Part shown: positions 12,015-63,849 of the stretch, one piece after another | Numbering within the stretch: the first letter of the stretch is position 1 | Layout: each line of letters starts with the position of its first letter | Assembly (NCBI GenBank): GCA_948530865.1 | Contig: CAOTKV010000006.1 | Span: forward strand, 13,238-77,237 | DNA from: an uncultured Clostridia bacterium | Lineage (GTDB): Bacteria; Bacillota; Clostridia; TANB77; CAG-508 | Direction: 5' to 3' | DNA length: 64,000 bases | Made by a program: the position numbers and the translations under genes | The notes under the pieces: model-generated | Seen by the model: only the letters and a program-made list of their open reading frames with translations | Told to the model about the DNA's origin: nothing | The model's database searches: none

Positions 12015-12018
12015 TCCT

Positions 12019-22990: not shown

Positions 22991-23006
22991 TTAAATTTGT
23001 ATTTTA

Positions 23007-23510: not shown

Positions 23511-23589
23511 AACTTTTCCTCCTTATTTTTCCTTAATTTGTATTTTATTTTAATAACTATCAGTTTTTCTAATAGTAACATTAAAAACT

Positions 23590-24022: not shown

Positions 24023-24076
24023 AAATATCCTACACTTTTATTATATCATATTTTTAAATTTTAGACAACTAATACA

Positions 24077-24766: not shown

Positions 24767-24783
24767 ATATTACTCCCAATATT

Positions 24784-25701
24784 TTATATTTCTGAAAATC
24801 CTATTTCACTTACTCTTCCTGTTTTATCATTATAAGTTATAAAATCACATTTAAACTGTCTAGATTTTAAATCATATAAAGCTGTTTTCCAAACCATTCT
24901 ACTCCATACATCTAAATTTTTTCCAGTAGTGTTAGTAACAACTCTTGTTAAATTTCCAATATCAGACTTATTTGATAACATAATTAAACTTTCTAGATTT
25001 TTATCATGCTTTTTATCTATATCTCTTAAAGTATAATACCCTTTAATTTCTGTTCCATTAAAATCAAGATGAGAATATTCTCCTTTATCCTTTATTATAG
25101 GAGATTTTATATCACCTATTGGTTTTTCAATTTTAACATCTGTAATTTTATCTAACTGAATTTCTGTTTCACCACTAAAAGTTGTATAGGCATTTTCTAA
25201 TGAATCATTATTTTTAAAAAAACCAACACTTTTCATTGTTAAATTTATTCCATCAATTGATAGTGGAATTTCAGGTTTTATTATAGACATACTATTTTTA
25301 TCTACATGAGAAAATAACTGTCTTTGTACTCCTTTATCAATATAATAAACTTCAACAGATTCTTCTAGATATTCTTTTTTGGTTAATCTTACATATACAT
25401 CTACATAAAAATCTTTTCCATATTCATTTCCTGTTAAAAAACCTCCACCTTCTGCATATTTTTCATTATTACTTTGTGCTTTATTTAAACAAGAAATAAC
25501 ATCAACACCATACATTCCTTTTTTATCATATATTTCATATTCTAAATTAAATTTTGCAAGTTGTTCTCTAGATTCTGTTTCATCTTCTTGTGAAGGCAAA
25601 AGCCCAATTGAAGAAAAGAAATATGAAATTAGTGAAAGTAAAACAACACCAATTAAAATTCCACCAACTATATGTACTAATTTTGCAATGTTAGCTTCCA
25701 T
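24784..25701 (-). CDS. Pilin-like protein (divergent N-terminus MEANIAKLVHIVGGILIGVVLL)
   Basis: 305 aa with an N-terminal hydrophobic helix after a short polar leader. It is the first gene after the platform gene. Confidence 0.5.
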   Translation of the reverse strand: MEANIAKLVHIVGGILIGVVLLSLISYFFSSIGLLPSQEDETESREQLAKFNLEYEIYDKKGMYGVDVISCLNKAQSNNEKYAEGGGFLTGNEYGKDFYVDVYVRLTKKEYLEESVEVYYIDKGVQRQLFSHVDKNSMSIIKPEIPLSIDGINLTMKSVGFFKNNDSLENAYTTFSGETEIQLDKITDVKIEKPIGDIKSPIIKDKGEYSHLDFNGTEIKGYYTLRDIDKKHDKNLESLIMLSNKSDIGNLTRVVTNTTGKNLDVWSRMVWKTALYDLKSRQFKCDFITYNDKTGRVSEIGFSEI

Positions 25702-25713
25702 AATTTCTTTCTC

Positions 25714-27795: not shown

Positions 27796-27828
27796 CTATT
27801 TTTCCCACCTTTCTTGCTAGAATAAAAA

Positions 27829-50600: not shown

Positions 50601-52787
50601 TATAGTATAGGCATCATTTTTCCATCCATCAAAACCTAATAAAACTTCTTCTCCTGGTTTTAATGAATCTGAATATCTTTTTGTTGCAACAGGTCTATTC
50701 ATAAATGGATTATCAATTAATTCAAATGATATTTTTCCATCTATTATAGGTAAACATGTTTTATATGATACAAGATTTTGTTTTTCATTTTCGTTAGCAG
50801 ATATAGAAGCTGATATTTGTGACATTTCATAATCATAATTTTCTATTGTAACTAAATTAACACTATCTGGCTTTAATGCTAGAACAAGATTAGATGGTGT
50901 GGTTCTAGACCCTTCTACTCTTACAAGAACTTCTATTTTATTATCTATTAATTGATTTCCAGCAGATGAAGATAATTCAAACGTCCTATAATCAATTTTC
51001 TTATATGCAGATGATTCTATAATATCAAAATTACTATTATACCTTGAATCTTTAAATGTTACTTGCATTCTCCAATTTGAACCAACTTCAACATCAGAAT
51101 TAACTTCAATTGTAACTTTACAATCAGCAGTATTTGCAGGCATTCCAGTAAGAGGTTCTCTTACTGATGTAACATTTATCTTTGAATAATCAATAAAATT
51201 TTCTGAATCTTCATTTCCTGTTATTGGATTTTCTGGAATTGAATGATAATTAACTGTAACTTTAGCTAAATTATCTTCAGTATATTTTCCAGTATTATTT
51301 CCATCTTTATTATCTGTATAATTTTTTCCTAAATAAAAGTTTTTATCTGATTCATATGTATCAATTACTATTTGTTCTTCTGTTCTAATATCTTCTGCAA
51401 TAGCAACATATGTGTACTCTACAAACTTATCTGTATCCATTTCGACAGAATCAAATCCAAATTCAACATCTTCATTTTTAAATTCTTCAATTACATCTAA
51501 TACTTCATTTTCTAAAGACATAAGAGCTATATCATTATTCTTAAAACGAACTAATTTTACGTTTAATTCATTTTTTACATTATTTAAGTGTGTTGTTGAT
51601 ATTGCTTTTACATTTATGCTTGGTGCAAATTCTGTTGGTTCGTAAACATTTCCATCTTTTTCAAAAAGAATATTGTATGCAAATACTGGATGAAATTCTT
51701 TAAAATCTTCAGATTGTTTAATTTCCATTTCAATATTTTGAATTTCTTCTTGTGATTTATTTATTGAAATTGCATTTAATGAATAACCAGTTGGAATATA
51801 TCCATTTGCAATAAATTTTGTTTCATTTTCTTCAAAAGTTAATTCTTGTTTATATAATTTTGTATCACCAACTTTTATTGTTTGATATTCAACTTCTATT
51901 GAAACATCTCCAATTGAATATCTATCTTCTCCACTAGTTTCTTTTACTGTAAATTTACTTCCTGGTTTTAATCCTACTTTTTCAACCACAGTATCTGGAT
52001 TATATGCTGGTTTTTCTATTGTTTCATTATCAATCTTATTTTCTTCTACTGTGTTTTCAGCATTTACCTCATTATTAACTTTGTTTTCTTCTACTACTGT
52101 ATTTTCTATAATTTCATTTTCTGGAGCAACAGTAGTATTTGTTGAAATTTCATTTTCTACAATAGTATTTGTAGATACAGTATTTTCTACAACAGTATTA
52201 GTTGATTCCACATTTTCTACTACTGTGTTTGTATTATCTTCACTCTTTTCTTTTTCTTCCTCACTTTCTTCTAAATCATTAGAAGTTAAAAATTTCTTTC
52301 TTAAACCAGCAATTTTTTCTGTTTGCATTACATTTTCTGATTTTATTTCATTAGTATCATTCACTTGGCTTTCTGTATTTTCAGGTAAAATATTTTCTAC
52401 AACATTTTGTATTTCATCAGTAATAGTATTAATAATGACATTGCTATTTTCTTCTTTTACCTTATTCTGAACTCTATTATCAGTTATATAATATTGGTTT
52501 ACATAGTATCCATTTATTTGATCAGGTAAAATAATATATTTTTCACCATTTGTATCTGTAAATACTTCAAGATCTATTTCAGAATTTTCTAAAGAAATAT
52601 CTTCACCATATTCTTTGAAATTAATTTTTATTGCATCTACTAATTCAGATTTAGTTGAAAAATTAAATCTATATATAACAAATAAAAATACAATTAAAAT
52701 TAGAATTATTAGTGTATTTCTAACTAAATTCTTTTTAATAACTTTATCTTTTTTAGTTTTAAAAATTCTTCTATTTCTCCTAGCCAT
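44619..52787 (-). CDS. Giant (2722 aa) N-terminally anchored surface protein with a central parallel-beta-helix-like repeat region
   Basis: Single uninterrupted ORF with the N-terminal TM helix LIILILIVFLFVIYRF. It contains a VEN/STNT tandem linker and more than 15 [VI][YF]GG[SG]N..G.V.G repeats. The C-terminus ...GDVFSYIIIK carries no LPXTG. Confidence 0.85.
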   Translation of the reverse strand: MARRNRRIFKTKKDKVIKKNLVRNTLIILILIVFLFVIYRFNFSTKSELVDAIKINFKEYGEDISLENSEIDLEVFTDTNGEKYIILPDQINGYYVNQYYITDNRVQNKVKEENSNVIINTITDEIQNVVENILPENTESQVNDTNEIKSENVMQTEKIAGLRKKFLTSNDLEESEEEKEKSEDNTNTVVENVESTNTVVENTVSTNTIVENEISTNTTVAPENEIIENTVVEENKVNNEVNAENTVEENKIDNETIEKPAYNPDTVVEKVGLKPGSKFTVKETSGEDRYSIGDVSIEVEYQTIKVGDTKLYKQELTFEENETKFIANGYIPTGYSLNAISINKSQEEIQNIEMEIKQSEDFKEFHPVFAYNILFEKDGNVYEPTEFAPSINVKAISTTHLNNVKNELNVKLVRFKNNDIALMSLENEVLDVIEEFKNEDVEFGFDSVEMDTDKFVEYTYVAIAEDIRTEEQIVIDTYESDKNFYLGKNYTDNKDGNNTGKYTEDNLAKVTVNYHSIPENPITGNEDSENFIDYSKINVTSVREPLTGMPANTADCKVTIEVNSDVEVGSNWRMQVTFKDSRYNSNFDIIESSAYKKIDYRTFELSSSAGNQLIDNKIEVLVRVEGSRTTPSNLVLALKPDSVNLVTIENYDYEMSQISASISANENEKQNLVSYKTCLPIIDGKISFELIDNPFMNRPVATKRYSDSLKPGEEVLLGFDGWKNDAYTISINNNTKVQKAEIPVSPENKEITVDLYADWKIANVVFMKQGGTGDGRTLGQELGSWNDAINKLNENPKYASNASDRELNIIIVSGGEINSDNSDNKAFKKADVGYTVTSLYDGHDYRLNENAKVKLTYNVEIENDLQMAFLNITGSGNYNENNSENFKEYNNNGTQKYHWTISGNSYNLRIGRGMTPLNVSDTTTTFAQVQGGSGEKEEYKTVIESGRYSNVYVENGNDSTSKNRNVLANFVLGADYDKALNNNENLNIYYRLTARYEKGIVSTISNSDTIYNICVKSGKIGIDFYEQYGETGSEQNLAGTAGIAIAGYTNGDNTTSSYDKGNRVLTVEGGQIVNITSGLCVNSNYANLANTHIYIKGSGANIQYISAGSFQLNTAGDRILQMTDGIVQYAIAGGINGCASKDGAGTLNGNTLLYIGGNATIGGDDRLVNKKFSPTADKIYDLEYGNVLGAGNGKSGNATAGNLNSSHVIIDGNAKILKNVYGGGNFGKVAQNSKVDILGGTIGGNVYGGSNQNGVDGNVEINMKNGTVDGTVYGGSNVNGTVKGNAKITLSGGTVNANNEGKDAIFVGGCGLGTSVNGTSQIIVNNDSNNVNITGNIYGGSEMGAVDGISAITVNQKSEDRNINIAGNIYGAGKGNNVRPATNKEVSVTIDGGRYENLKVFGGANINGTITGNITVKVGEKAPTYVNEVYAGGNNAQVKCTDNKPYKNEMYLYENAEVGNAYSGGNNAGVEESRTIAMYVKGKARNIYGGSNSAGTVGETLIKCENTENVGNVYGGGFGENTVAKKTTVELLNSIVENVYGGGELGNVDGETSVRISSTTVNGSAFAAGKGDERNACNKALVKGPTKIIAEGTTIIKNNLFGGGDAANVGAIGDTSTDQIAGADSYVYISGATINGSVYGGSNQAKIFGNANLFIGKSAIDQGYEQGKIEISGTIFGGGESRTGSDVFDYNFKSINGNIKINLDGTDYDTTENNSINIKGSIFGSGNASSAAKDGDITIKNYGSRENKIIKKAISVQRATNVVIDNSVMNLEGTTDSTNTYFKDVAYAFNIIGKLTIKNGTMLYLENGANRLSSFYSMVDKDGSEVPAEVTFSEDGITVTKNVDNRIYLYNGSNLNISAREDVQGEYGHVEGMTFFGVYQGENLYSGIYDENYQIGKAPEWGERNFTTSYVLGLHQRDPEHDITKNGFYTTYEILTPEADKLQKENNLTSDQYNSTGSYYGYIEPTPKDYQYYAWYTGLNRLKRIEITADSLIVTNYSTLGAVDVSLKELDAIKKNGTLTIQDFSVNWEDDNITLVDKSEIENISEDANTKFALAMKTGNAGWASDANTNFKYDDGKGSFTGDEQYTFENADTTTTVGLYLYHSKNVEIEENKKLGTGEILMNLTYMEGPNLYTVEVVIHLSMSMQLDKDTGYNAAITPGVKYDLFTTSATDITTDSSFSTFLELSQRNFRDQIINGSKKDDEYYQKLTRVLNTSYMLPEKTNITMVDLSKNNEPKFYYYTVKTPQNIFYLKDFIAMGSKDGDKKELYNETLMNNSYYDSNLKFHYEAFIFIVDFKDVDFPEGENAKITSDPEMTIELHSEQLNDANIPELNIGLISSQLSAHRTKYNVYRANSQNGVSISPRIQNLYVGNTASITVGTSFSTEQVEGATPTNTQYFNKKLGAVVTLTKDGREVQGSELLGTWIEIDGARYHPRSDGTIRVKLNDIVANVSKRLVINATNSSLASGAYKLSIKTFASADGKYYGTEKHLAEDTIDLNIVNNRYGLNSKLPDNQAVIDCSTGLTLNEQGYASRDEETSNTLDVQLEYNSTLTTPYITVALERREYGEKGEITTEKIYNKNYQTVDLADYVELISEDGQVLTKAPKEITNEGRIEYEAVSTENIKSNSSSLGDAVFNLKYKIKPPADGEKLVTGTYRLVFTLYDISQEEREVVINPDTNTSETLPIIPGTNTTTNTSITKPDITHEIVTVYKPIGDVFSYIIIK
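47581..49260 (-). repeat. Coding array of degenerate ~25-30-aa Gly/Asn-rich repeats (beta-helix-like) inside the giant gene
   Basis: Units include NVYGGGNFGKV, NVYGGSNQNGVDGN, TVYGGSNVNGTVKGN, NIYGGSEMGAVDG, NIYGAGKGN, KVFGGANINGTITGN, EVYAGGNNAQV, NAYSGGNNAGV, NIYGGSNSAGTVG, NVYGGGFGENTV, NVYGGGELGNVDG, NLFGGGDAANVG, SVYGGSNQAKIFGN, TIFGGGESRTGS and SIFGSGNASSAAKDGD. Confidence 0.75.
52038..52235 (-). repeat. Degenerate tandem 8-10-aa repeat (STNTVVEN-type) forming the membrane-proximal stalk of the giant protein
   Basis: aa 185-250 read NTNTVVENVE STNTVVENTV STNTIVENEI STNTTVAPENEIIENTVVEENKVNNEVNAENTVEEN. Confidence 0.7.
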
Positions 52788-52883: not shown

Positions 52884-52920
52884 AGAAAAAAGGTAATAAA
52901 TTGAACATTTATTACCTTTT
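52884..52920 (-). terminator. Terminator after the 368-aa TasA-like gene
   Basis: AAGGTAATAAA-TTGAAC-ATTTATTACCTT followed by a T-run on the minus strand. A TTTAAA-N17-TACAAT promoter candidate for the giant gene follows (~52815-52850). Confidence 0.65.
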
Positions 52921-52951: not shown

Positions 52952-54058
52952 TTATTTTGGGTTTACTTGTGTTCCAGCTGAATCTAAACTAAAGTTTAAA
53001 GTATATCTAGCACGAGAACCTGATGCATAGTTTTCGCAGTCAATATCTTGACCTTCAATCCACATATAAACTCTATATTTTGTCACACCAGCTGCTAAGG
53101 CTGCTGATTCTCCACTTGGAGTTGTTGCATTCTTTGGCATTACAAGATCTGAAGTTGATGTATCATTTTTACTTGTTGACCAAGTTTTATGTACTGGTGC
53201 AAATTTATCACTATGAGCAGTTGCTGTACCATCTCCTAATAATATTCCTTCTGCAAGTGTTATTGGAGCCTTTACACCATCATATGCTATTTCAGGATTT
53301 CCAGCACCTTCTCTTAAACTATGATTCCAGCCAACTGTTTTTTCATCATATACAATAGCTTTTGATGTATGATAATCATTGTTTGGTTCCCACATCATTG
53401 GTGTTCCACCTGTTTTTAAAGTAGCTCTTAAATCTTCTGCATCTTCAGATTTTTTATTATCACCTGGTATAATTGCAATACGAGAAGCATTTGTTATACC
53501 TTTTTCTTTTGTTGGATCTTCAATTACTTTATCAGGATTATTTAATTCTAATTCAACAACATTTCCTGACATATATAAATCTTTTTCAGCATTTCCTGAT
53601 TTTAAATATATATCAAATGCAATATAATGTCCAGCTGGTGATTCTGTTCCATCATATGCTTTTTCAGTTTCTTCTGTTGAAGTAATTACGAAATTAGTAG
53701 ATGTTTCACTTTCTGGTTCAGTAACACCATAAAACATTTTCATACTATTACCATTTTTTTCAAGTACTGTTGATACTGGTTCCATTACAACTGGTAATTG
53801 GTTAACAATGTTTTCTTTGTATTTTTGTGTTGCATCTTGTAAATCTTTTAATTCAAGTACTGTTTTCCAATCTTCAGCATCAGCTGAAATTTGAAGACCA
53901 CTTTGTGTCTCAATTCTAACATCAAGATTTCCAATGCTTACTGTTCTGTTTGCAGTAAACCATGCATAAGTTGACATTATTAATAGCACTGCTGTTAACA
54001 ATAAAACAAGCAATAAACTATCTAACTTTTTCTTACTTACTTTTGTTTTTTTCTTCAT
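52952..54058 (-). CDS. TasA/camelysin-like exported protein with a SipW-type signal peptide
   Basis: N-terminus MKKKTKVSKKKLDSLLLVLLLTAVLLIMSTYAWFTANRTVS, compared with the TasA-type G-T-[FY]-A-[YW]-F-[ST] box. 368 aa. Confidence 0.7.
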   Translation of the reverse strand: MKKKTKVSKKKLDSLLLVLLLTAVLLIMSTYAWFTANRTVSIGNLDVRIETQSGLQISADAEDWKTVLELKDLQDATQKYKENIVNQLPVVMEPVSTVLEKNGNSMKMFYGVTEPESETSTNFVITSTEETEKAYDGTESPAGHYIAFDIYLKSGNAEKDLYMSGNVVELELNNPDKVIEDPTKEKGITNASRIAIIPGDNKKSEDAEDLRATLKTGGTPMMWEPNNDYHTSKAIVYDEKTVGWNHSLREGAGNPEIAYDGVKAPITLAEGILLGDGTATAHSDKFAPVHKTWSTSKNDTSTSDLVMPKNATTPSGESAALAAGVTKYRVYMWIEGQDIDCENYASGSRARYTLNFSLDSAGTQVNPK

Positions 54059-54073
54059 TTCTTTCCTCCTATA

Positions 54074-54778
54074 TTAATCAACATGTTCTTCTGTAATATC
54101 CATATGCATTTTCAATTCTCCGCCAAGTAACGCATTTGTACAATCAGGATCATCACCTTCAATAAATACAACAATAGTGAATCTATCAATATCACCTGGT
54201 TTGAAGTCTTGTCTACATTCTAACATTACAGTATCATCGGAATAAAAAGCTTTTGTACCTTCTTCTGGTTCTTCTGTAAAGCCATTTAATTTAGCATAAA
54301 CTGATTGTTCTCCATTCAAAAAGACCATAACCCTAATAGCTTCATCTACATTTAAGATAACATCATCAATAAGTGTAGAATACCAATAATTAACTGTTTC
54401 TTTACCTTCATTTTCTATGTAAAAGGTATATGCAATATAATTATCGCCATTATGAGAACCATCGCCTTCTGTATCAATGTTTTCTGGTAACCATTGTATA
54501 GAAATGTTATCCATTCCATCAAATGCAGAAGCTTCGAGTTTTCTTGACACCATCTTTTCAGCCATATTCTCATAAATTACTATTCCTTTATCCCAACTCA
54601 AATTTCGATCTAGAATAATTGTAAATTTTCCAGCATCGTAAATTATAGATAGGATAAAATATAATAAAATCAAGAATAACAATAAAATAAGTAGTGCAAG
54701 TCTAATTATTTTGATTCTCAAATCTCTTCTAACTATTTTTTTAGAGGTCGTCTCAAATTCAAACTTTGTCATTTTCAT
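54074..54778 (-). CDS. Membrane-anchored/exported protein of the SipW-TasA-like cluster
   Basis: 234 aa with the N-terminal TM helix LALLILLLFLILLYFILSIIY, then a beta-rich domain. It lies 15 nt upstream of the TasA-like gene. Confidence 0.5.
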   Translation of the reverse strand: MKMTKFEFETTSKKIVRRDLRIKIIRLALLILLLFLILLYFILSIIYDAGKFTIILDRNLSWDKGIVIYENMAEKMVSRKLEASAFDGMDNISIQWLPENIDTEGDGSHNGDNYIAYTFYIENEGKETVNYWYSTLIDDVILNVDEAIRVMVFLNGEQSVYAKLNGFTEEPEEGTKAFYSDDTVMLECRQDFKPGDIDRFTIVVFIEGDDPDCTNALLGGELKMHMDITEEHVD

Positions 54779-55003
54779 TTGAACAACCTCACCTCCTATT
54801 AGATCAAAGCTATTTTAGATTAGACATACATATTGAATTTTGCATATTCTCTAATTTAGGTTAATTTTACCATATCTAGTAAATCACCTCAATTACATTA
54901 TTTTTACATTTTTTTCTCATGTTTGTTACATTTACCACTTTAATTGACTAAAAAATTTCTCTATGTTACAATTTTCATATACTAATAAGAATGGGGTTTT
55001 TGT

Positions 55004-55768
55004 ATGAAAAAAGAATTAAATACTCACAAATCAAAAAGGATTTTTAAAATTATTTTAGTACTCTTAATTGTTACAATTTTATTTCTAATTATAAGGTCAA
55101 CCTACTCGAAATATGTTACAAATGATGTAAAAGATGCAGACTTTAATATATCAAATTGGCATATATTAATTAATAATTTAGATATAAATAATGAAGAACA
55201 AATTAAAAAATTTTCAGAAACATTAAAACTTAATTATGTAAAAAATGAAAATGTTGCAGAAAATGTTATTGTACCAGGTTCTAGTGGATATTTTGATATA
55301 ACCATTGAATCTACTGGAACAGAAATTCCTTTTAAATATGATGTTTCAATTGATAATACAAAATCAGAATTCCAAGATTTCAAAATTTTATCATATTCTA
55401 TTAGTAATGATATAGATTTAACTTCTCCTGATGCAGATAAAATACTTTATGATTCAAAAGAAGATATTAATCCAGAAGAATCTTCTGTAACTGGTATAAT
55501 AGAACCAGCAAATAATGTTACGGATAAGAATATAAATAATATTAGATTCTATGTAAAATGGTATGATGTTGATAGTAATATTGAAAATTATAATGAAATA
55601 GAAAATAAAGATATTTCTGATAACTATGGAGATGTAAAAGTTTCAAAACAAATAACTGAAGGTAAAGAAAAAGCTGAATTTACAGTTCCTGTAAAATTAG
55701 TAGTTACACAAATAACTCATAATGATTTAAATACAAATACAACAAATACTAATACAATAGAACCTTAA
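55004..55768 (+). CDS. Exported protein with an alternate SipW-type signal (STYSKYV box)
   Basis: N-terminus MKKELNTHKSKRIFKIILVLLIVTILFLIIRSTYSKYVTND. This is the same box as in 63172..63849. It is the only plus-strand gene in the cluster. Confidence 0.65.
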   Translation: MKKELNTHKSKRIFKIILVLLIVTILFLIIRSTYSKYVTNDVKDADFNISNWHILINNLDINNEEQIKKFSETLKLNYVKNENVAENVIVPGSSGYFDITIESTGTEIPFKYDVSIDNTKSEFQDFKILSYSISNDIDLTSPDADKILYDSKEDINPEESSVTGIIEPANNVTDKNINNIRFYVKWYDVDSNIENYNEIENKDISDNYGDVKVSKQITEGKEKAEFTVPVKLVVTQITHNDLNTNTTNTNTIEP

Positions 55769-55780
55769 TTTAAAAGTACA

Positions 55781-55817
55781 AAAAAGATTAAAGTTAATAT
55801 TAACTTTAATCTTTTTT
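55781..55817. terminator. Bidirectional terminator between convergent genes
   Basis: AAAAAGATTAAAGTTAATATTAACTTTAATCTTTTTT, a perfect palindromic hairpin. Confidence 0.75.
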
Positions 55818-55824
55818 AGCTCTT

Positions 55825-56655
55825 TTATGGATTTTGGGCTTCTTCACCTTTTTGAATTGCCTCTAATTTTACTGTTATTTTTATACAATAATTAGATCCT
55901 TCTTGACCTTTATTTGCTTCATAATATTCATAAGCTTTTATTCCATAATCTGTATCTTTTTTATCATTATCTAATATTTCTGTTTCTGTTTCTCCTGTTT
56001 CATATGACCATACAACATTAAGTTTTATTCTTATGCTTTCTTCTGGAGCAACTGTTACTTCTTTAACTTCTGTAATATCATTATCTTGTAGTGCTATTTT
56101 AATATCAAATGGATATTCTTTTAGTTTATTTAATATCTCTTCTTCTGTAATAACAGTGCCTTCATATTCGTCACTAATCGCAAATTTTTCATCAAATATT
56201 TGCATTGCAACTATCTTGCAAGAAAGTGTTGCATCCATTTCACCACTATTTTTGGCTGTAATTTCTTGAGTGGCATCTGGCATTCCTGGATATACTTCAT
56301 CTAATATTAAATCAAATTCTTCTTGACTATCATCATTCATAAAGTCGATTTTCCAACTCTTAACATGTACATCAACACCCATTGTTACAGTAGATATATA
56401 TATAAACCATGCATATGTATTAACAATTAAAGTTAATAACAATAAGACTACAGTTCTAACTTTTAGACCATTTCTTAATTTTTTACTTGCTATCTTCCTT
56501 TTTCTCTTTTTCTTTTTGTGTTTTACTGTTTTTTCATCTTTATTTAGAGGTTCATTACATATTAATTCATTATTAACTTCATTTTCAACAGCTTCTAAAA
56601 GAATCAATTCTTCTAATTCTTTATCGAGAGTTATCTCTAAATCTTCGTGACTCAT
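55825..56655 (-). CDS. Exported protein with a TasA-like NTYAWF signal box and a long acidic/basic N-terminal extension
   Basis: ...KKRKRKIASKKLRNGLKVRTVVLLLLTLIVNTYAWFIYISTV. ATG 56655 lies behind GGAAGGAG; the track start is 56670. Confidence 0.6.
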   Translation of the reverse strand: MSHEDLEITLDKELEELILLEAVENEVNNELICNEPLNKDEKTVKHKKKKRKRKIASKKLRNGLKVRTVVLLLLTLIVNTYAWFIYISTVTMGVDVHVKSWKIDFMNDDSQEEFDLILDEVYPGMPDATQEITAKNSGEMDATLSCKIVAMQIFDEKFAISDEYEGTVITEEEILNKLKEYPFDIKIALQDNDITEVKEVTVAPEESIRIKLNVVWSYETGETETEILDNDKKDTDYGIKAYEYYEANKGQEGSNYCIKITVKLEAIQKGEEAQNP

Positions 56656-56694
56656 ATATACTCCTTCCATAACAGAATATTGTATTTTTAATAA

Positions 56695-57309
56695 TTATTG
56701 TTTATCCTCATCATCCTCATCATCTTCATCTTCCTCGTCGTCATCCTCATCGTCTTCATTTCTTCCTAATATTGAATCTTTTAATTGTAAAGATATTAGA
56801 ACTGCAAAAGGAACAAATACTACAATATAAAATGCTGTCATATTATTCATTAACTTAGTTAATAAACTAATAATTACACATTTATATACTACTTTACCAT
56901 AAATTTGATCTCCTGTTATAGTAGGATCTTCTGCTTCATTTGCTATACCTTTTGTGTGAAAAATTTTTCCTTCTTCTGTTTCATCTATTGCAACAATTTG
57001 GTGAGTTACAACTCTTCCATTAAATGTTCCTTGTTTTCCTAAGTAAGTTACATCATCACCAATTTTTAAATTATCAATTTGTTCTTCTTTTACTACTAAA
57101 ACATCACCTACTAAATATTTAGGAACCATACTTTCTGTTGCTACATTAAATACTCTAAATCCTCCAATTGCTTTTTCATTATTTGAAAATCTTTGAAGTG
57201 CTAAAACTGATATTAATAAAATTAGAACAATAGTACAAATAATTTTTATTATTGTAACTATAATATTTAATACACTTTTCTTTTCTTTTACTTCTTTTTC
57301 CTTTTTCAT
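56695..57309 (-). CDS. sipW: SipW-type signal peptidase I with a poly-acidic C-terminal tail
   Basis: Ser box TESMVP, His box VTHQIV, TKGIANEAEDP and a C-terminal TM helix. The tail is NEDDEDDDEEDEDDEDDEDKQ. ATG 57309 lies 1 nt after the upstream TAA. Confidence 0.8.
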   Translation of the reverse strand: MKKEKEVKEKKSVLNIIVTIIKIICTIVLILLISVLALQRFSNNEKAIGGFRVFNVATESMVPKYLVGDVLVVKEEQIDNLKIGDDVTYLGKQGTFNGRVVTHQIVAIDETEEGKIFHTKGIANEAEDPTITGDQIYGKVVYKCVIISLLTKLMNNMTAFYIVVFVPFAVLISLQLKDSILGRNEDDEDDDEEDEDDEDDEDKQ

Positions 57310-57310
57310 G

Positions 57311-58441
57311 TTATCTTTCACTTTCAAATTTATTTATTTTTTGAACATATTTAGCGATATGTTTTTTGAATATTTCTTGAATTTCTTTGTTTGAAGTAGT
57401 TCTTCTATATTTAACAATTCGATATTGCTTACTAACTAAATTTTTCAATTGTTCTTCAGTAAGACTTTCATTAACATCAATAGTTCTTTCAACAACATTT
57501 GCTATTAATTGTTCTAGTAGTTCTTTTTTTCTTTTTCCACTAATTTCAGGATTTTCAACACATTCTAAAATTAAGTAATCAAGTAAAAATGTTTCATCTA
57601 CAAATTTCTTTGCTTTTCCTCTATCTTTATACTTTCTTACTTTAGTTTCATTAGTGTTCTCTTCTGATTTTTTATTCATTTCTGTAATCAAAAAATCCCA
57701 TAATTTAACTGCATATTGGAAATTAACGTTTTTTAACAAAACATTAGTCTTTTTTAGTGGTGGAGTTACTAATGGAACATGAGCACGATCTAACTCTTGA
57801 TAAGTTGCAGTTAATGTTAAATTAATAACATTTTTTTCTAATGCTCTTATTCTTTCTAACTGTCTTTTTAATTCATCAGATTTACCACTAGATTCAGTAC
57901 TTGCAGTAAGCATAATTTGTATATCTATTTTGTTTTTTCCATTATAGGATTTTCCTTGATAATCAATTTTCTTGAATTCTTTATCTTTAGATTTATCTTT
58001 TGCCAGCTTATCTTTTTCTTTTTTTATAATTATTAGCATTTTTTGTACTAATGTATAGATAAATCTATTTTCGTATGTATTAAATGTTTCTTCTTTAAAA
58101 ACGTTTAATAACTTTCCTGGTTTTACCTCACCATTTTCATCAACATCATCTATAAAAGAAGAATTTTTTGCTAAATTCTTTATACTTTCAACTGTAACCT
58201 TTTTTATTTTTTCTATTTTTACAACTTCTTCTTCATTTACAATTAACTTTGTTGGATTTCTTAAAATATTATCTAAATATTCTACTGTATCCTCCATTTT
58301 TTGAACCCAAAGAAATTGAGATTTAGGTCTATTAGTTTCAATATTAACATCCATTTTAGAAGTTAAACGTTCATTAAATTTTTTTACATCACTATTATCT
58401 GCATCAGCATATAATTCAAAAACATTTAATAATTTATCCAC
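57311..58441 (-). CDS. Hypothetical partner of the McrB-like AAA+ protein (McrC-position protein; no nuclease motif seen)
   Basis: 376 aa, soluble, 18 nt downstream of the AAA+ gene. It contains TYENRFIYTLV and KKTNVLLKNVNFQYAVKLW segments. I could not find a PD-(D/E)xK motif by eye. Confidence 0.45.
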   Translation of the reverse strand: MDKLLNVFELYADADNSDVKKFNERLTSKMDVNIETNRPKSQFLWVQKMEDTVEYLDNILRNPTKLIVNEEEVVKIEKIKKVTVESIKNLAKNSSFIDDVDENGEVKPGKLLNVFKEETFNTYENRFIYTLVQKMLIIIKKEKDKLAKDKSKDKEFKKIDYQGKSYNGKNKIDIQIMLTASTESSGKSDELKRQLERIRALEKNVINLTLTATYQELDRAHVPLVTPPLKKTNVLLKNVNFQYAVKLWDFLITEMNKKSEENTNETKVRKYKDRGKAKKFVDETFLLDYLILECVENPEISGKRKKELLEQLIANVVERTIDVNESLTEEQLKNLVSKQYRIVKYRRTTSNKEIQEIFKKHIAKYVQKINKFESER

Positions 58442-58459
58442 TGTACCCTCCTAGAATAA

Positions 58460-59995
58460 CTATCCTAATTTCTTTAGTCTTAATACATATTCTATACATT
58501 CTTTCATTTTGCCTTTACCAAAAGTTTTATCTAAGAATGTAACAAATCCATCTATTTCATCTTTTATATAAGCAATATTTAATTGCTCAAATTTTCTTAA
58601 AACTTTTTTTGCCATGAAGTAATCTATACCTTCAACTTCATCTCCACCACATGCAACGTATGCTGCAACGAATTTTCCTAAGTGTGTAACAATACGGTTA
58701 CCAAAAGCAACTCTAAAGTGTTTGATAACATAATCATCCATTTCATTTATTTTCTTCCAAAGATCATCAGAAACTGGGTGTTCTGCTTTTGCTTTTTCAA
58801 ATAAAGAATCTAAATATGTAAAGTTAACATCCATCGGTGGTGTATCTTCTGCTTCAAATGCTTGTCCTTTTTCATTTATATCAATAGGCATTGCTCTATC
58901 GTAAACTTTATCTGTTACCATAAATGTTGAATCATCATTATTGATTGTTCCAATATACCAAGTATTTGCTGGTATTTTAATTCTTCCACCTATAATATGT
59001 TTTGGATCATTTTCCCATGGACTAGAAACAACTTCAATAATCCATTCATCTCTATTTGGCATTTCCAAAATAGAAAGCATTTCAGCAAAATAGTATTCAA
59101 CACGAGCCAAGTTCATTTCGTCTAATATTACAGTATATACATCATCAGTATATGAAGCTATATATAATTGTTCTAATAATTGTGTTTCATTAAACTTTTT
59201 AGTAAATTCATTAAAATATCCAAAAAGTTCTGTTCTATCTCTCCATGAAGGTTGTACTGATACAACACATGAATCATGTTTTAAGAATTTTCCCCAAGCA
59301 TAAGCAAGTGATGTTTTACCAGTACCAGAGATACCTTGTAATATAACTAATTTTGTTGATGCAAGACCAGCTATAAATGTACGAATCATTGGTAATGTAT
59401 AATATAAATGTAATCTTGAAGCAGCAAAATTTCTAAATGTATTACATAATTCTTCTAATTCAAAATCATTATTATAGTTTTGAACTTTATATTTTGCAAA
59501 TTTTTTATCAATAATTGTTAATCTTGTAAATCTTACTCCATCTGCATTTTCAATTTCTTCTTTATTTTCACCATTTGCTTGGCTAATATCCATTTCTGAT
59601 GCTTCGTCTGGGCTTAAACCTAATTGAGAAACTTTCATTGCTAAAATCTCTTCTCTTTCTTTAGTCATTTTAGCAACTCTTTTATTTAAATCTGCAACTT
59701 CTTTTACCATACTTTCTTGTTCTACAAGTGTTTTTCTAAATCTAATATATTTTCTTAATATTAGAAAAACTAAAAGAACAGATAATATTAAAATAATTGC
59801 AACTGCAGCTATAGCAATTGCTACAAGAATCCATTCTTGTCCTGAAAAATCATTCTTATATTCCTTTATTAAGTGAATATAATTTGGAATATCAAAAACT
59901 TGTCTAATTCCATTAATTATTCCAAACACAATTGTTTTTACTCCTGCAAAAAATTCATTTAAAAATTCATATAAGAATCTTACATAAGTGTCCAT
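58460..59995 (-). CDS. Membrane-anchored McrB-like (AAA_5 type) AAA+ NTPase
   Basis: TM helix WILVAIAIAAVAIILILSVLLVFLIL followed by a coiled coil. Walker A: LQGISGTGKTS. Then SVQPSWRDRTELFGYFN. Walker B plus the McrB-like box: VILDEMNLARVEYYFAEMLSILE. Also IGTINNDDST. Confidence 0.75.
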   Translation of the reverse strand: MDTYVRFLYEFLNEFFAGVKTIVFGIINGIRQVFDIPNYIHLIKEYKNDFSGQEWILVAIAIAAVAIILILSVLLVFLILRKYIRFRKTLVEQESMVKEVADLNKRVAKMTKEREEILAMKVSQLGLSPDEASEMDISQANGENKEEIENADGVRFTRLTIIDKKFAKYKVQNYNNDFELEELCNTFRNFAASRLHLYYTLPMIRTFIAGLASTKLVILQGISGTGKTSLAYAWGKFLKHDSCVVSVQPSWRDRTELFGYFNEFTKKFNETQLLEQLYIASYTDDVYTVILDEMNLARVEYYFAEMLSILEMPNRDEWIIEVVSSPWENDPKHIIGGRIKIPANTWYIGTINNDDSTFMVTDKVYDRAMPIDINEKGQAFEAEDTPPMDVNFTYLDSLFEKAKAEHPVSDDLWKKINEMDDYVIKHFRVAFGNRIVTHLGKFVAAYVACGGDEVEGIDYFMAKKVLRKFEQLNIAYIKDEIDGFVTFLDKTFGKGKMKECIEYVLRLKKLG

Positions 59996-60013
59996 TACAT
60001 TTCCTCCATATTT

Positions 60014-61012
60014 TTAAACTTCTAATGTTCGTAATTTTTTATATTTCTTTTTATTTATATCATATGTATCTACTATTATGCAATTAAAAATATTTAATAT
60101 CTTTAATTCATCTTCTGTAAGTTTAGGCATATCTTTTTCTGTTCTTAAACAGAAAGTAAAACCACGTTTAGTAAGTTCATAAACACTATCTTTGTTATCA
60201 CAGAAATTATTATAATTAATTTCAAAAGATATTTTATCTTGACTTGCTTGACAGTTTAAAATTGTTAACAATTGTTCAAGTTTTTTCTTTTTAGCAAATA
60301 AATCTGTTGAAAAATCTATAACATAAGTTTTTGTGAAATTCCCATCTAATATATCTTTAAGCGCTTTTATAGCAATCATTGGATATTCAACAAATAATTT
60401 ATCTTCATTAACTATATCTTCATTAAATGTATCTTCAATTGCATCTTTGCTAAACACATCTGGAAATGCAAAATTATATTTAAGTTTGGCTCTATAAAAA
60501 GTATTATCTGATGAAACAATTTTATTTATTTCCAATTCAAACTCATCCGAATTATATCCATTCAAAAGTTCATTTACTTCATTCATATCTGTTTCTACTA
60601 TTTTAGTAAATGTATTTTCAAAGTCATCATCTTCAGCTGATTTCAAATTAAATTTATTAACTCGCTTTTCAGCAATTTTTTTAACAACTTCAGATATTTC
60701 TATATTTTTTCTTACAAAATCGAAATAGAAAAAGTATTGAAATAACATTAATGTATTTTCTACATTTTCCTCATTTGCTTTTTCTTTTTTAACTAGATTA
60801 TTTGCTCTTATTTTTAATGCTTCATATATTCTTCTGTAAAATACTCTTATCTTTTCATCTACTCCAAAATTATAATATCTAGCATCTATATAAGTTTGAA
60901 TTAATTCTTCACAAACATTTCTATCATATTTACTTTTTAAAATTATACTGCAATATCTTTTTAATCTTTTTTGAGTTTTACTTATATGATTTTCTATAAT
61001 ATTATTCATCAT
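60014..61012 (-). CDS. Hypothetical cytoplasmic protein; the C-terminal half is faintly EAL-like but lacks catalytic residues
   Basis: 332 aa. The pattern YVIDFSTDLF...ISFEINYNNF...LTKRGFTFCLRT...LNIFNCIIVD mirrors the EAL strand order (NlS / EitE / G..ialDDFG / KiD), but with the catalytic positions replaced. Confidence 0.3.
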   Translation of the reverse strand: MMNNIIENHISKTQKRLKRYCSIILKSKYDRNVCEELIQTYIDARYYNFGVDEKIRVFYRRIYEALKIRANNLVKKEKANEENVENTLMLFQYFFYFDFVRKNIEISEVVKKIAEKRVNKFNLKSAEDDDFENTFTKIVETDMNEVNELLNGYNSDEFELEINKIVSSDNTFYRAKLKYNFAFPDVFSKDAIEDTFNEDIVNEDKLFVEYPMIAIKALKDILDGNFTKTYVIDFSTDLFAKKKKLEQLLTILNCQASQDKISFEINYNNFCDNKDSVYELTKRGFTFCLRTEKDMPKLTEDELKILNIFNCIIVDTYDINKKKYKKLRTLEV

Positions 61013-62030
61013 TATCTCCCTTTTTCGTTTGTTCTAATACAGTTGTTCCTGAAAGAACTCTTAGCGTATTTTCATCTGGAATTGAATAATCTTTTGTTAC
61101 ATCTTTTTTATAAAATTTTATAAATTCACTATCAGATTGTGCAACTTTAACTTTAATTTTATTTATATATTCATATGAAGGTCTTGGACCAATTTGTATT
61201 GTTTCAACTTCTGTATAATTATTGGCTGTATTATCTAAAACAATAATATTGGGATCAAATTGTATTTCAAGTTCTGCTTCTGCTTTATCAGAATCATTTG
61301 TTAATATAACATTTAAATATGGACTATTTGCACTATCTTCAACTTGATATGTTATTCCATCTTTTCCTGCATAAATATATAAATTTCCATATAAAGTTTC
61401 TGTATACGGTGAAATTGCATCTGCTCTAATTTTTATATGTACATATTCACCTTCTTTAAAATCACTGTTTTTTGGAGTTATATTCATAGTAAATTCATCT
61501 ACATTATCATTAGATATTAATCTTGTTGTTTTTCCACTTAAAATTGGATCTATTTGTAAGTCTATATAAGCACTTCCTAAAGAAAATGTATTTAATTGCT
61601 CTTCTGTCATTTCATTTGGACTTTGCTCTACACAAGATAATGCAGTATCTGTAACATTTTTATATTTGAAAACTTCAACATCAAATTTTAATTCATACTC
61701 TATATCTACTTTTGATTTTTTTAAAGTATTTTTTCTACTATACATTTCAATTGTTGCAATATTAGTTTTTGTTCCTCTACTACCTGACCAATTCTTTATT
61801 TCAAATCTTGTATTTTCATTTTTGGCTAATATGTTACTTGTAAAGTAGAATTCTTTTGAATTCAAATATGCAGTCCTAATAGCTGAATAAACAAACTTCG
61901 ATAAAGAAACTGTTGCTGGAAAAATAACTTTAACACTCATCAATATTATTATGATAGCGATTATAAATAGCATTATTAATCTTTTATAACCACTATTTTT
62001 TCTTCTTGTTTTTCCTCTACCTTCTTTCAA
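61002..62030 (-). CDS. Exported/membrane-anchored beta-rich protein of the SipW cluster
   Basis: N-terminus ...YKRLIMLFIIAIIIILMSVKVIFPATVSLSKFVYS, 342 aa. Overlaps the next gene by 11 nt. Confidence 0.55.
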   Translation of the reverse strand: MKEGRGKTRRKNSGYKRLIMLFIIAIIIILMSVKVIFPATVSLSKFVYSAIRTAYLNSKEFYFTSNILAKNENTRFEIKNWSGSRGTKTNIATIEMYSRKNTLKKSKVDIEYELKFDVEVFKYKNVTDTALSCVEQSPNEMTEEQLNTFSLGSAYIDLQIDPILSGKTTRLISNDNVDEFTMNITPKNSDFKEGEYVHIKIRADAISPYTETLYGNLYIYAGKDGITYQVEDSANSPYLNVILTNDSDKAEAELEIQFDPNIIVLDNTANNYTEVETIQIGPRPSYEYINKIKVKVAQSDSEFIKFYKKDVTKDYSIPDENTLRVLSGTTVLEQTKKGDNDE

Positions 62031-62047
62031 TTAAACCATCCTTTATA

Positions 62048-62653
62048 TTATCTATAAATTTGTCTTGCATCAATTTTTACTTCAATACAATCTATTATAT
62101 TTTGGTATTCAGATTTTTTGTATTCTTCTCCTTCTGGATAAGAAATTTTCAATGTATATGTTCTAGTTTGATCTTTAGTTCTATCTAACTTATGAGCAAC
62201 TTCTTCATATATACATTTGAAATATGTATTATATTCATCTTGTTTTATATTATTACGTATATTATTTTCTTTGCTATCATCAACATAAAGTTCATATTTT
62301 AATGGTAAATTTGTAGTTGTTCTTAATTCTAAGTCGTATTCTATATTAGTATCTGCACGATACTTTTCACCATCTACCATTTTAAAATTAGAAACTGTTA
62401 TTTTATATTCTTTAGGTTCTTTATCATCTGGTCCAATTTCACCTATATTAATTGTTTCAGCATCATAAGTGTCATCAATACAGAAGAATGCGACATCAAC
62501 ATCAGCAGTCGAATTTGCTTCTGATTCGAACAATGAATATGAGTCAAATAGTATTCTGTAAAGTGTAATTAATATAAAAAGGCAGATTAAGCATTTTATT
62601 CTGCGCTTTATTCTTACTATTCTCCTTTTTCTTCGGTATCTTCCTCTAACCAT
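62048..62653 (-). CDS. Exported protein of the SipW cluster (Arg-rich n-region, DSYSLFES box)
   Basis: N-terminus MVRGRYRRKRRIVRIKRRIKCLICLFILITLYRILFDSYSLFESEAN, 201 aa. Confidence 0.55.
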   Translation of the reverse strand: MVRGRYRRKRRIVRIKRRIKCLICLFILITLYRILFDSYSLFESEANSTADVDVAFFCIDDTYDAETINIGEIGPDDKEPKEYKITVSNFKMVDGEKYRADTNIEYDLELRTTTNLPLKYELYVDDSKENNIRNNIKQDEYNTYFKCIYEEVAHKLDRTKDQTRTYTLKISYPEGEEYKKSEYQNIIDCIEVKIDARQIYR

Positions 62654-62675
62654 AATATTCCTTTCAAATTTATCC

Positions 62676-63179
62676 TTATTGTACTTCTTTATTTTTTGGT
62701 TTTATTCCAAAAATAATTCTTATTGTAATTATAGAAAAAATTATTGCAATAAGAACTTGTGGAGTTTTTAATACTTTTATCCAAGTTCCAACATTATTAA
62801 ATATGTATACAACCTTTCCAACAACATCATTCGAAGTTATTGGAGAATCTTTTGATGTATTTGCATCTCCTTTAGTTATTAAATTATCTTCTGTTTTTTC
62901 TATTACTCTATGTGTTATAAAATCTTTTCCACTTTTATATGTAATAATATCATTTACATTTACATCTTTCGTAAGCTTAACTATTACAATATCTTGTGGT
63001 TTTATTGTACTTTCCATACTACCTGTTATAACTCTAAAAATTGTATAACCGCAAAATTCTATATGATCTTTATGAAATACTTTTAATTGTGCATAACAAT
63101 ATGAAACAATTATTAGAATTATTATCAATATAATCATTAAAAAATCAATTTTTTCAAACCATTTTTTCATTTTACTCAC
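62676..63179 (-). CDS. sipW: SipW-type signal peptidase I
   Basis: Ser box TGSMEST, His box ITHRVI, TKGDANTSKD and a C-terminal TM helix. Overlaps the upstream gene by 8 nt. Confidence 0.85.
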   Translation of the reverse strand: MSKMKKWFEKIDFLMIILIIILIIVSYCYAQLKVFHKDHIEFCGYTIFRVITGSMESTIKPQDIVIVKLTKDVNVNDIITYKSGKDFITHRVIEKTEDNLITKGDANTSKDSPITSNDVVGKVVYIFNNVGTWIKVLKTPQVLIAIIFSIITIRIIFGIKPKNKEVQ

Positions 63180-63849
63180 CTGTATACTGAATTGCTTTAA
63201 CAGTAACTGGAATTTCTAAATCATTTTCTCTAAAAGCATTCATTCCAAGTATTGTATCCATTTCATTAATTTTATCATATGGACTATCACTATTTCCAAA
63301 TGGCCAATTAATTTTTACTGTAACATTATCTATACATTTTGCTTCATCTTTAATTTCTGATAATGGCTTTATTCTATTAATAGTAACTATATCATTTTCT
63401 TCATCTAGTTTATATTCTAGTGTTTTTCCATCTGCCAAATATACATCTTCTAATTTTAAGTTAGTTTCTTTTAAGCTTTTTAAATCTAATTTTATTTCAT
63501 ATTTAAAAGATGTATCAGTTTGTGCTGGATCTATTTTTATATAAAATTCACCATTCATTCCTGGTGCTGCTTTATTTTTTTCAAGATTACTACCATATAT
63601 ATTTTTGTCATCTTTCCAAATAAAATCATTTTTAGTTATTTGGAATTGTACACTTCTTACTTGTTCTTCGCCTTCGATTTCTGGTAGTACTGTTATATCT
63701 GTTTCATTAACTTTTATAATCCATTGTCCTATTGTTGCTTGAACATCTCCTTCTGCCTCGCCAACATATTTTGAATATGTTGATTTCAATATAAAAATTA
63801 ATAAAATTAGTATTAATATAATTATTAGAAATTTAACTTTTTTCTTCAC
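63172..63849 (-). CDS. Exported protein with an alternate SipW-type signal (STYSKYV box)
   Basis: N-terminus MKKKVKFLIIILILILLIFILKSTYSKYVGEAEG. GTG start behind an AGGTGAG SD. Confidence 0.65.
   Translation of the reverse strand: MKKKVKFLIIILILILLIFILKSTYSKYVGEAEGDVQATIGQWIIKVNETDITVLPEIEGEEQVRSVQFQITKNDFIWKDDKNIYGSNLEKNKAAPGMNGEFYIKIDPAQTDTSFKYEIKLDLKSLKETNLKLEDVYLADGKTLEYKLDEENDIVTINRIKPLSEIKDEAKCIDNVTVKINWPFGNSDSPYDKINEMDTILGMNAFRENDLEIPVTVKAIQYTGE

Follow-up and report, generated by a model that had tools for sequence, protein, structure and literature searches.

A predicted CoCoPALM-type locus that places a membrane-anchored McrB-like GTPase among SipW-type signal peptidases and exported proteins in uncultured gut Bacillota

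The class of loci called CoCoPALM was named in a single paragraph by Bell et al. (2024, PMC11090510), who independently inferred a link between pilus assembly and McrBC and deferred the analysis to a forthcoming paper. We found no follow-up paper on CoCoPALM in the later literature and no CoCoPALM material in the supplementary files of Bell et al. that we examined; the class already has a name and a one-paragraph bioinformatic description. The surface fibres of the TasA superfamily studied so far polymerise without a chaperone or nucleoside triphosphatase (NTPase) (10.64898/2026.01.04.697558), and a GTPase embedded among genes for putative fibres is odd for that reason. Here we describe a locus in a 64,000-nucleotide stretch of DNA (the window) from an uncultured Clostridia bacterium (GCA_948530865.1, contig CAOTKV010000006.1, positions 13,238 to 77,237), in which a membrane-anchored McrB-like GTPase, a McrC-like partner, and a third cytoplasmic protein are encoded between SipW-type signal peptidases and exported proteins. 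By its sequence, the locus appears to be of CoCoPALM type: three of the four defining features that can be extracted from the published description are present, and the fourth, an NxD signature, is ambiguous. An earlier reading of this DNA from its letters (the sequence-only reading) had not recognised the architecture, which already bore that name. Its likeliest function, in our view, is to assemble or control surface fibres processed by SipW-type enzymes in a GTP-dependent manner, and the energy-dependent assembly or remodelling that the same reading had proposed is in our judgement the most reasonable view.

The 17 genes at 42 to 64 kb make up a complete, well-delimited example with at least three transcription units. 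All 12 open reading frames (ORFs) described earlier were found at their coordinates, with the same order, overlaps, and N-terminal boxes. The genes and two hairpins are listed below.

g01, 63172-63849, minus strand: exported paralogue of 225 amino acids (aa) with a K-rich N-terminus, a hydrophobic helix/transmembrane (TM) segment, and KSTYSKYV (STYSKYV box)
g02, 62676-63179, minus strand: archaeal/ER-type (SipW-type) signal peptidase I, 167 aa, with a TM segment at each end
g03, 62048-62653, minus strand: exported paralogue, 201 aa, YSLFES box
g04, 61002-62030, minus strand: exported or membrane-anchored protein, 342 aa, consensus box GRYIY after the TM segment
g05, 60014-61012, minus strand: cytoplasmic protein without a TM segment, 332 aa, helical domain and predicted degenerate EAL-like domain
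g06, 58460-59995, minus strand: membrane-anchored McrB-like GTPase, 511 aa
g07, 57311-58441, minus strand: McrC-like partner with DUF2357 and without a nuclease, 376 aa
g08, 56695-57327, minus strand: second SipW-type signal peptidase I, 210 aa, acidic (D/E) cytoplasmic tail
g09, 55825-56670, minus strand: exported paralogue, 281 aa, NTYAWF box and YPGM...N.GE motif
g10, 55004-55768, plus strand: exported paralogue on the opposite strand, 254 aa, STYSKYV box
g11, 54074-54778, minus strand: protein of 234 aa with a single TM segment; its extracytoplasmic domain is beta-rich and has an EGDDPDC motif at its end
g12, 52952-54058, minus strand: exported, beta-rich protein, 368 aa, STYAWFTAN box, WEPN and EGQDxDC motifs
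g13 (giant gene), 44619-52787, minus strand: protein of 2722 aa with an N-terminal signal anchor (VIYRFNFS) and without a Pfam domain
g14, 42740-44347, minus strand: cytoplasmic protein, 535 aa, no family match
g15/g16, 42112-42724, minus strand: third signal peptidase of SipW type, broken up into overlapping ORFs of 106 and 105 aa
Hairpin between g09 and g10, 55778-55820, strand unspecified: bidirectional terminator-like, dG -21.1 kcal/mol, z -7.75
Hairpin after g12, 52888-52920, minus strand: terminator-like, 14 bp and a U-run, dG -20.5 kcal/mol, z -6.53

The junctions are tight. The genes g01 and g02 overlap by 8 nucleotides (nt) and g04 and g05 by 11 nt, and g07 and g08 lie 1 nt apart if g08 starts, as is probable, at the ATG at 57309, which is the start in the gene calls of identical contigs; these three junctions had been quoted correctly before. 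The remaining same-strand junctions from g01 to g09 measure 17 to 24 nt, and none in this run exceeds 24 nt. The cluster had been taken for a single operon; instead, the two hairpins (55778-55820 and 52888-52920) and the divergence of g10 and g11 argue for at least three transcription units, which are likely g01-g09, g10, g11-g12, and a further one from the giant gene onward. The first predicted unit holds the g05-g06-g07 trio together with both intact peptidases. The hairpin between the convergent g09 and g10 has a perfect 17-bp stem with A and T runs, and none of 200 shuffles was as stable. The 225 nt between the divergent g10 and g11 hold a promoter-like TTGACT-17-TACAAT (54944-54972) for g10; a scan for sigma-70 promoters was uninformative in DNA of 26% GC, with 128 sites found and 151.6 expected. 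The window as a whole has a GC content of about 26%, equal in the cluster and the surrounding DNA, and between 38 and 64 kb nearly all of its genes lie on the minus strand.

We compared 80 loci, one in each of 80 species-level genomes carrying a close relative of g06, with genes detected by hidden Markov models (HMMs). The order g01-g02-g03-g04-g05-g06-g07-g08-g09-(g10 reversed)-g11-g12 recurs across them. Both g06 and g07 were detected in 80/80 loci, g08 in 79/80, g05 and g09 in 75/80 each, and g04 in 72/80; at least one SipW-type peptidase was present in 79/80 and four to eight genes of the exported family in 74/80. Median junctions across the loci are 1 to 15 nt, and the reversed orientation of g10 was kept in all 62 loci in which the gene after g09 is g10/g01-like. 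The sequence-only reading had held that the AAA+ protein and its partner are wired into the cluster, and all 80 close relatives do keep SipW-type and exported neighbours. The outcome that it had named as refuting, a pair found in other genomes mostly without SipW/TasA neighbours, is not what these loci show. Sequence identity was highest for g06 (62-86%), followed by g11 (46-86%), and was 34-75% for g08, 31-72% for g07, and 22-46% for the exported proteins, which the g05-g06-g07 trio exceeds by far in conservation; such a pattern of a conserved machine with fast-evolving surface parts is typical of a pilus machine.

More than 8000 relatives of g06 were found in the database, and at least 586 stretches matching it were counted among GTDB species-representative genomes (one genome per species). 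The matching genomes are gut metagenome-assembled genomes variously labelled Bacilli, Clostridia, Tenericutes, or Mycoplasmatota, and they include two assemblies that consist of a single chromosome (1.26 and 1.55 Mb). A TM segment precedes Walker A in 72 of the 128 closest near-full-length representatives. An all-against-all search of representatives brought up more distant relatives, of which three TM-anchored GTPases from higher-GC organisms (33-40% identity) keep parts of the context. L085 has a g11-like and a g12-like gene, the GTPase, and a SipW-type peptidase; L088 has four small exported proteins, a SipW-type peptidase, the GTPase, and a DUF2357 protein; and L089, the 40%-identity relative, has a g05-like gene, the GTPase, and a g07-like gene. 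The survey of gene neighbourhoods found the linkage in relatives of 33-37% identity (L085 and L088) as well. In L088 (33% identity; 7166-12026), genes for an ATP-binding cassette (ABC) ATPase and for large membrane proteins of 530 and 835 aa lie 3' of the DUF2357 gene and may constitute an associated exporter.

The linkage of the pair to the cluster holds in a large subclade but fails in some distant relatives. In L086 (2964-18642; also in L087), at about 51% GC, tandem McrB-like TM GTPases (446 and 522 aa) flank a 557-aa DUF2357 protein. Next come a transglutaminase-core protein of 908 aa and a protein of 1439 aa; a search for signal peptidases in L086 found none. L090 and L091 have multi-pass N-termini and the partner gene only, i.e., a bare GTPase-partner pair, and L092 encodes a TM-less 796-aa relative beside a UPF1-type helicase, a CoCoNuT-style defence context. 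Linkage to SipW-type and exported genes thus belongs to a large subclade and not to the whole GTPase family.

These comparisons bear on the idea that the pair stands in the SipW cluster by chance or through a recent insertion of an unrelated cassette, for which only the general mobility of McrBC genes speaks. A synteny shared by 80 species-level genomes and by distant lineages, a GC content equal to that of the surroundings, and reading frames that overlap or are tightly spaced all run counter to it, and we regard chance adjacency or insertion as effectively refuted. An inserted defence cassette was likewise rejected, on the synteny and conservation across the 80 loci.

At the centre of the locus, g06 was confirmed as McrB-like by the NCBIfam McrB model (E = 1.4e-7) and by the solved McrB structures 6ut6, 7vsr, and 6hz4 in the PDB (E = 1.5e-5 to 3.5e-5), as the sequence-only reading had proposed. 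Walker A (GISGTGKTS), Walker B (ILDEMN), and the signature INNDDS are invariant among its relatives. The signature can be read as NxD followed by D, the form by which Bell et al. define the branch, and HMMER aligns it without a gap to MNTADRS of Escherichia coli, i.e., as NxxD. A conserved N-terminal tail is followed by one strong TM segment at about 56-80, a charged, heptad-like/coiled-coil-like stretch at about 85-125, and the AAA+ domain from about 195. The tail/loop, which is extracytoplasmic in our reading, has the invariant residues Y39, Y46, D49, F50, E54, and W55. No DNA-binding family matched the N-terminal 190 residues, which hold the tail, the TM segment, and the charged helix instead. 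Against Pfam, the N-termini of 13 members gave weak matches to FtsL/FtsL_2 (E = 0.03-0.05) and DUF948 (E about 0.05), in a minority of members each, and homology to FtsB was not reproduced.

The 376-aa partner of the AAA+ protein, g07, was borne out as a protein with the N-terminal domain of McrC: DUF2357 covers residues 49-156 (Pfam E = 4.6e-13) and matched in 33/33 sampled orthologues. The domain is followed by a charged, probably helical region at about 150-215. None of the 33 orthologues matched a nuclease family, and the alignment has no conserved D...(D/E)xK triad and no invariant acidic residue past position 130. We read g07 from these profiles as a McrC N-terminal-domain protein that has lost its nuclease. 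Searches of Pfam and PADLOC families found no nuclease or other toxin domain in g07, g05, or g14.

Given such an origin, the pair might still serve in anti-phage defence or abortive infection, as a module that guards the fibre (a likely phage receptor) or the export site through a membrane effect and not a nuclease. The GTPase domain is nearest to defence-type CoCoNuT-like GTPases, with the candidate defence GTPase PDC-M26A as its closest PADLOC model (2.4e-37) and the context of L092 pointing the same way. One relative also lies near phage genes: the L089 trio (721-8267) is directly downstream of phage-like genes (DUF859 and Phage_holin_1), on a short contig where a prophage border is indistinguishable. 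However, defence genes are patchy and fast-evolving, whereas the pair is present in 80/80 loci in a fixed order, with 62-86% identity and in a chromosomal core region; the absence of a nuclease or toxin domain from g07, g05, and g14 and the tight junctions with peptidase and exported genes add to the case, and a present role in defence seems to us very improbable.

The third member of the trio, g05, is predicted to carry a degenerate EAL-like fold, a component newly reported here. Its AlphaFold2 (AF2) model (pLDDT 91) has a helical N-domain (1-150) and an alpha/beta C-domain (about 155-332), and in a Foldseek search of the PDB about 45 of the top 50 matches were EAL domains (Bd1971, FimX, MorA, RocR, and LapD). 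The E-values of these matches are borderline (1e-3 to 0.17), with probabilities mostly 0.9-1.0 and target-normalised TM-scores of up to 0.47, and the EAL-like domain has about 175 residues compared with about 240 in canonical EAL domains. FimX, whose EAL structures are among the matches, has a degenerate EAL domain itself and controls how type IV pili are assembled. When g05 and g07 were compared as profiles with PDB sequences, only designed proteins came up.

Both intact peptidases are of the archaeal/SipW type, with scores on TIGR02228 (sigpep_I_arch) of 73.9 bits for g02 and 68.6 bits for g08 at a cut-off of 51.85; g02 shows GSMES and THRV motifs. The sequence-only reading had called them SipW. 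They passed the archaeal-type model but reached only 49-53 bits (g02, 49) on the Bacillus SipW equivalog, whose cut-off is 190, and because of these scores we treat them as SipW-type enzymes and not as SipW orthologues. The acidic tail reported for g08 is present here but is strongly acidic in only 22/81 orthologues, and we rejected it as a conserved functional feature on that count. Of the g15/g16 halves, one matches the N-terminal part of TIGR02228 (2.5e-10) and the other its C-terminal part (2e-14); the split may mean a frameshift or a pseudogene, or may be an error in the assembly. We also dropped the notion of one peptidase per aromatic-box class, since several of the inspected maps (e.g., L008 and L029) keep both classes with only g08 detected.

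Another conceivable role for the trio is that of a regulatory checkpoint, in which a GTP- or nucleotide-sensing switch acting on the SipW-type peptidases or on downstream signalling would match the timing of fibre production to the state of the cell and do no mechanical work. SipW of Bacillus subtilis has a peptidase-independent signalling role via its C-terminal tail, and g08 has a charged cytoplasmic tail. The EAL-like fold of g05 is typical of second-messenger sensors, and TasA-superfamily fibres self-assemble without energy input. Against this, an AAA+ ring with a McrC-type pore plug is mechanical wherever it has been studied, and the extreme conservation of the TM segment and extracytoplasmic N-tail/loop of g06 fits structural coupling better; g05 lacks the EAL ligand-binding motifs, and the limited spread of the acidic g08 tail is a further point. 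We consider a purely regulatory trio unlikely.

The exported proteins make up a single paralogous superfamily, as hhalign and HMM cross-hits show. The hhalign probabilities were 100 for g01 with g10, 97 for g03 with g10, 96.8 for g01 with g03, 95.8 for g01 with g09 and for g09 with g10, and 92 for g03 with g04; the N-terminus of g12 gave 95 with g09 and 91 with g10, and the C-termini of g11 and g12 gave 89 with each other. At least six paralogues (g01, g03, g04, g09, g10, and g12) have a common N-terminal design of a lysine/arginine-rich start, one hydrophobic helix, and a conserved aromatic box, e.g., (S/N)TY(A/S)(W/K)(F/Y), and g11 and the giant g13 probably share it. None of the exported proteins was assigned to a Pfam family. 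In this lineage and its nearest relatives, g09 has an extra cytoplasmic N-terminal extension (residues 1-68; about 60 residues), acidic and then K/R-rich, which is missing from the orthologues of about 200 aa in other species.

A candidate for the major subunit is g12. In its AF2 model (pLDDT 90.2), the signal helix spans residues 5-33, the chain is disordered as a hinge exactly where the aromatic box lies (30-37), and the body is beta-rich. A terminator directly 3' of its gene fits a highly expressed major subunit. Among 350,542 PDB chains searched with Foldseek, the best match to g12 was the TasA fibre 8aur_A, with a non-significant E-value of 0.046 and TM-scores of 0.2-0.29, and CanA came fourth. 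On TIGR04088, the model for SipW-cognate signal peptides, g12 scored 14.1 bits (E = 0.041), short of the cut-off of 19, and the other exported paralogues gave no match. The g09 profile found AbpX as its best, weak match among PDB sequences (E = 0.66 and 0.76). These leads from g12 (Foldseek) and g09 (AbpX), the only ones in structure or sequence for the exported superfamily, point to the TasA superfamily. The sequence-only reading had called the proteins TasA-like, which other comparisons did not sustain: Pfam Peptidase_M73 (PF12389) matched 1/33 members of the g09 family, weakly (E = 0.022), and neither the g10 family nor the proteins of the window, profile searches of PDB sequences gave nothing significant, and hhalign of the g09, g10, and g12 families with TasA, using a TasA sequence verified as 100% identical to 8aur_A, gave probabilities of 0.2-0.8%. 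Their kinship with TasA is only suggestive.

Beyond the small exported proteins lies the giant g13, which has no Pfam domain and no internal repeats detectable by BLAST, and whose signal anchor followed by an aromatic box resembles those of the small proteins. The residues N, G, T, and E abound in it, and a state free of repeats and domains is unusual for a giant surface protein. Homologues of g13 lie within 10 kb of the core, upstream or downstream, in 50/80 loci, and in many loci the giant gene is accompanied by g14 and another peptidase. The gene g14 was detected in 21 loci, and in the inspected maps among them it adjoins the giant gene with a further peptidase beyond. Its product has no TM segment and no match in Pfam or NCBIfam, and may be a cytoplasmic accessory of the giant protein.

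One could also imagine that no fibre is made, and that the exported and giant proteins build an envelope layer or adhesin complex, with the GTPase powering the secretion, anchoring, or turnover of the 2722-aa protein. The giant homologues, together with g14 and the third peptidase where detected, do travel with the core on either side, the giant protein has the similar signal anchor and aromatic box, and the TasA kinship of the small proteins is unproven. Yet the giant gene lies within 10 kb in only 50/80 loci, while g09 and g10 accompany the trio nearly everywhere, and the small proteins share a design of an N-terminal strand and a beta-sandwich, with a donor-strand fibre as the best structural match. 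An envelope or adhesin complex without a fibre is, in our view, distinctly unlikely.

We think it probable that the locus encodes a dedicated apparatus for making or controlling a surface fibre or matrix from signal-anchored subunits. In such an apparatus, the precursors would be inserted as signal-anchored proteins, and the peptidases would cut at the aromatic box, the predicted site, to free an N-terminal beta-strand. The freed strand would engage in donor-strand complementation, by which the subunits would polymerise as in TasA, AbpA, AbpX, and CanA fibres. Under the membrane, g06 would form a McrB-type ring with g07 plugging its pore as McrC plugs McrB. The ring would couple GTP hydrolysis, via the TM segment and the conserved extracytoplasmic N-tail/loop, to the release of precursors, to their ordering or gating, or to their hand-over at the peptidases, a role analogous to that of the PilB/PilC motor of type IV pili with unrelated parts, and g05 would supply a regulatory and possibly nucleotide-binding input.

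Several observations weigh against a GTP-dependent fibre apparatus. The TasA-superfamily fibres cited above polymerise with neither a chaperone nor an NTPase. TasA kinship is not significant (Foldseek E = 0.046; Pfam and hhalign negative), and therefore fibre formation is itself something that we infer. Cleavage at the aromatic box is a prediction, and the N-terminus of g06 may be an N-out tail or a two-helix hairpin. In g05, motifs for EAL catalysis or c-di-GMP binding are not recognisable: there was no Pfam EAL match at E ≤ 0.1, and its conserved residues include no EALxR-type motif. Among the relatives of g06, the distant membrane-anchored L086 and L090 have no peptidase nearby, and the closest TM-less ones are defence-type CoCoNuT (L092 and the PADLOC match).

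A wider proposal, which we put forward as possible and tentative, is that the locus represents a third independently evolved class of NTP-powered surface-filament machine, after the type IV-like and the conjugative/type III-like ones. A former restriction motor of the McrB/McrC type would have lost its nuclease, become tethered to the membrane, and come to drive or gate with GTP the assembly of SipW-processed donor-strand subunits under a degenerate EAL-like sensor. It would be a conserved, near-universal organelle of a large low-GC radiation of uncultured gut Bacillota, some with genomes of about 1.3-1.5 Mb, and the giant protein would be its adhesin or cargo.

The surroundings of the locus held further genes of note. 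A second, unrelated pilus-like cluster lies at 21523-32491 on the minus strand and encodes five small proteins that begin with M(D/E)NASKALI(I/M)A and a hydrophobic helix, leaders that resemble those of type IV or Flp-like pilins. Its other products are two proteins like ParA/CpaE, a TM protein like CpaB, and large TM proteins of 693 and 919 aa that matched nothing in Pfam, and its Pfam support is weak (AAA_31, 0.0055; SAF, 0.0013). Three further genes of the window (17486-18730, 40039-41223, and 41567-42097) had clear matches. Those to the SpoIVB peptidase (3.9e-77) and YqfD (9e-105) show that the host is a spore-former or descended from one, and a DUF4116-repeat protein (9e-61) is encoded between YqfD and the split peptidase g15/g16. 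Past position 64000, as seen on identical contigs such as L001 from the same species (3836-4795 and 35-3592), the operon strand carries a gene for 319 aa and a gene for 1185 aa diverges from it, neither with a Pfam match, and then comes ClpB; the locus may truly begin with the 319-aa gene upstream of g01.

If the function that we propose is true, evolution has tamed a motor of defence to build structures on the cell surface, and this would be the first TasA-like/SipW-type fibre to need a cytoplasmic NTPase. The locus occurs in several hundred species (at least 586 matches) of uncultured Bacillota that inhabit the guts of humans, ruminants, and birds, and takes up more than 1% of the genome in the 1.26- and 1.55-Mb assemblies. 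Given this wide spread and genome share, it likely matters for attachment to hosts, food particles, or other cells. The EAL-like third component, the exported paralogue family, the giant protein, and the taxonomic picture of CoCoPALM are new here, and a complete delimited locus, high-confidence models for two proteins (g05 and g12), and the EAL-like component make the question directly testable.

Compared with known systems, the locus shares with McrBC and CoCoNuT the AAA+ GTPase core with its Walker A, Walker B, and N..D signature, and a partner that has the McrC N-terminal domain (DUF2357); in McrBC, this domain enters the pore of the hexamer and stimulates GTP hydrolysis. It differs from both in having a TM anchor in place of a DNA- or RNA-binding N-terminal domain, in lacking a PD-(D/E)xK, HEPN, or other nuclease, in being fixed and syntenic in a chromosomal core region, and in its neighbours, which are peptidases and exported proteins and not restriction-modification genes or helicases.

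As in the tapA-sipW-tasA operon and the TasA superfamily (AbpA, AbpX, CanA, and TafE), an archaeal/ER-type peptidase adjoins beta-rich exported proteins, whose signal helix is followed by an aromatic box (by eye, GGGTWA|AFND in TasA and STYAWFTAN, NTYAWF, and STYSKYV here). Predictions make the mature N-terminus a beta-strand (where TasA begins when mature was verified against 8aur), and a PG...N.G motif is common to g09, TasA, and AbpX. In contrast, the known TasA-superfamily systems polymerise without any NTPase, whereas here there are six to eight paralogues, two to three peptidases, no TapA, and a cytoplasmic trio, and the homology of the subunits is non-significant.

The likeness to type IV pili, Tad pili, and the archaellum is one of logic: many pilin-like paralogues with N-terminal membrane helices are paired with a dedicated processing peptidase, a cytoplasmic NTPase, predicted to be hexameric, sits at the membrane, and a putative degenerate EAL-type regulator is present as in FimX-PilZ-PilB. 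The parts are not homologous: the peptidase is a serine signal peptidase I and not an aspartic prepilin peptidase, a McrB-type AAA+ GTPase stands where pili have a PilB/VirB11-type ATPase, the subunits are beta-rich and not alpha-beta, and there is no PilC-like platform; among the 17 proteins of 42-64 kb, there were no matches to a PilB/TadA-type ATPase, an A24 prepilin peptidase, or a PilC/TadBC platform.

Nothing in the locus contradicts membership in CoCoPALM. The two have in common a McrB-like GTPase, apparently close to the CoCoNuT branch, with an N-terminal TM segment and a coiled-coil-like stretch, an adjoining nuclease-free DUF2357 protein in which a charged region is probably helical, signal-peptidase-family genes alongside, and a presumed role in pilus assembly. 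In the description by Bell et al., the N-terminal module of the GTPase is FtsB-like, and the McrC homologue mostly has a coiled coil and lacks an active nuclease. The published paragraph lists no exported subunits, EAL-like component, giant protein, or taxonomy, all of which are added here.

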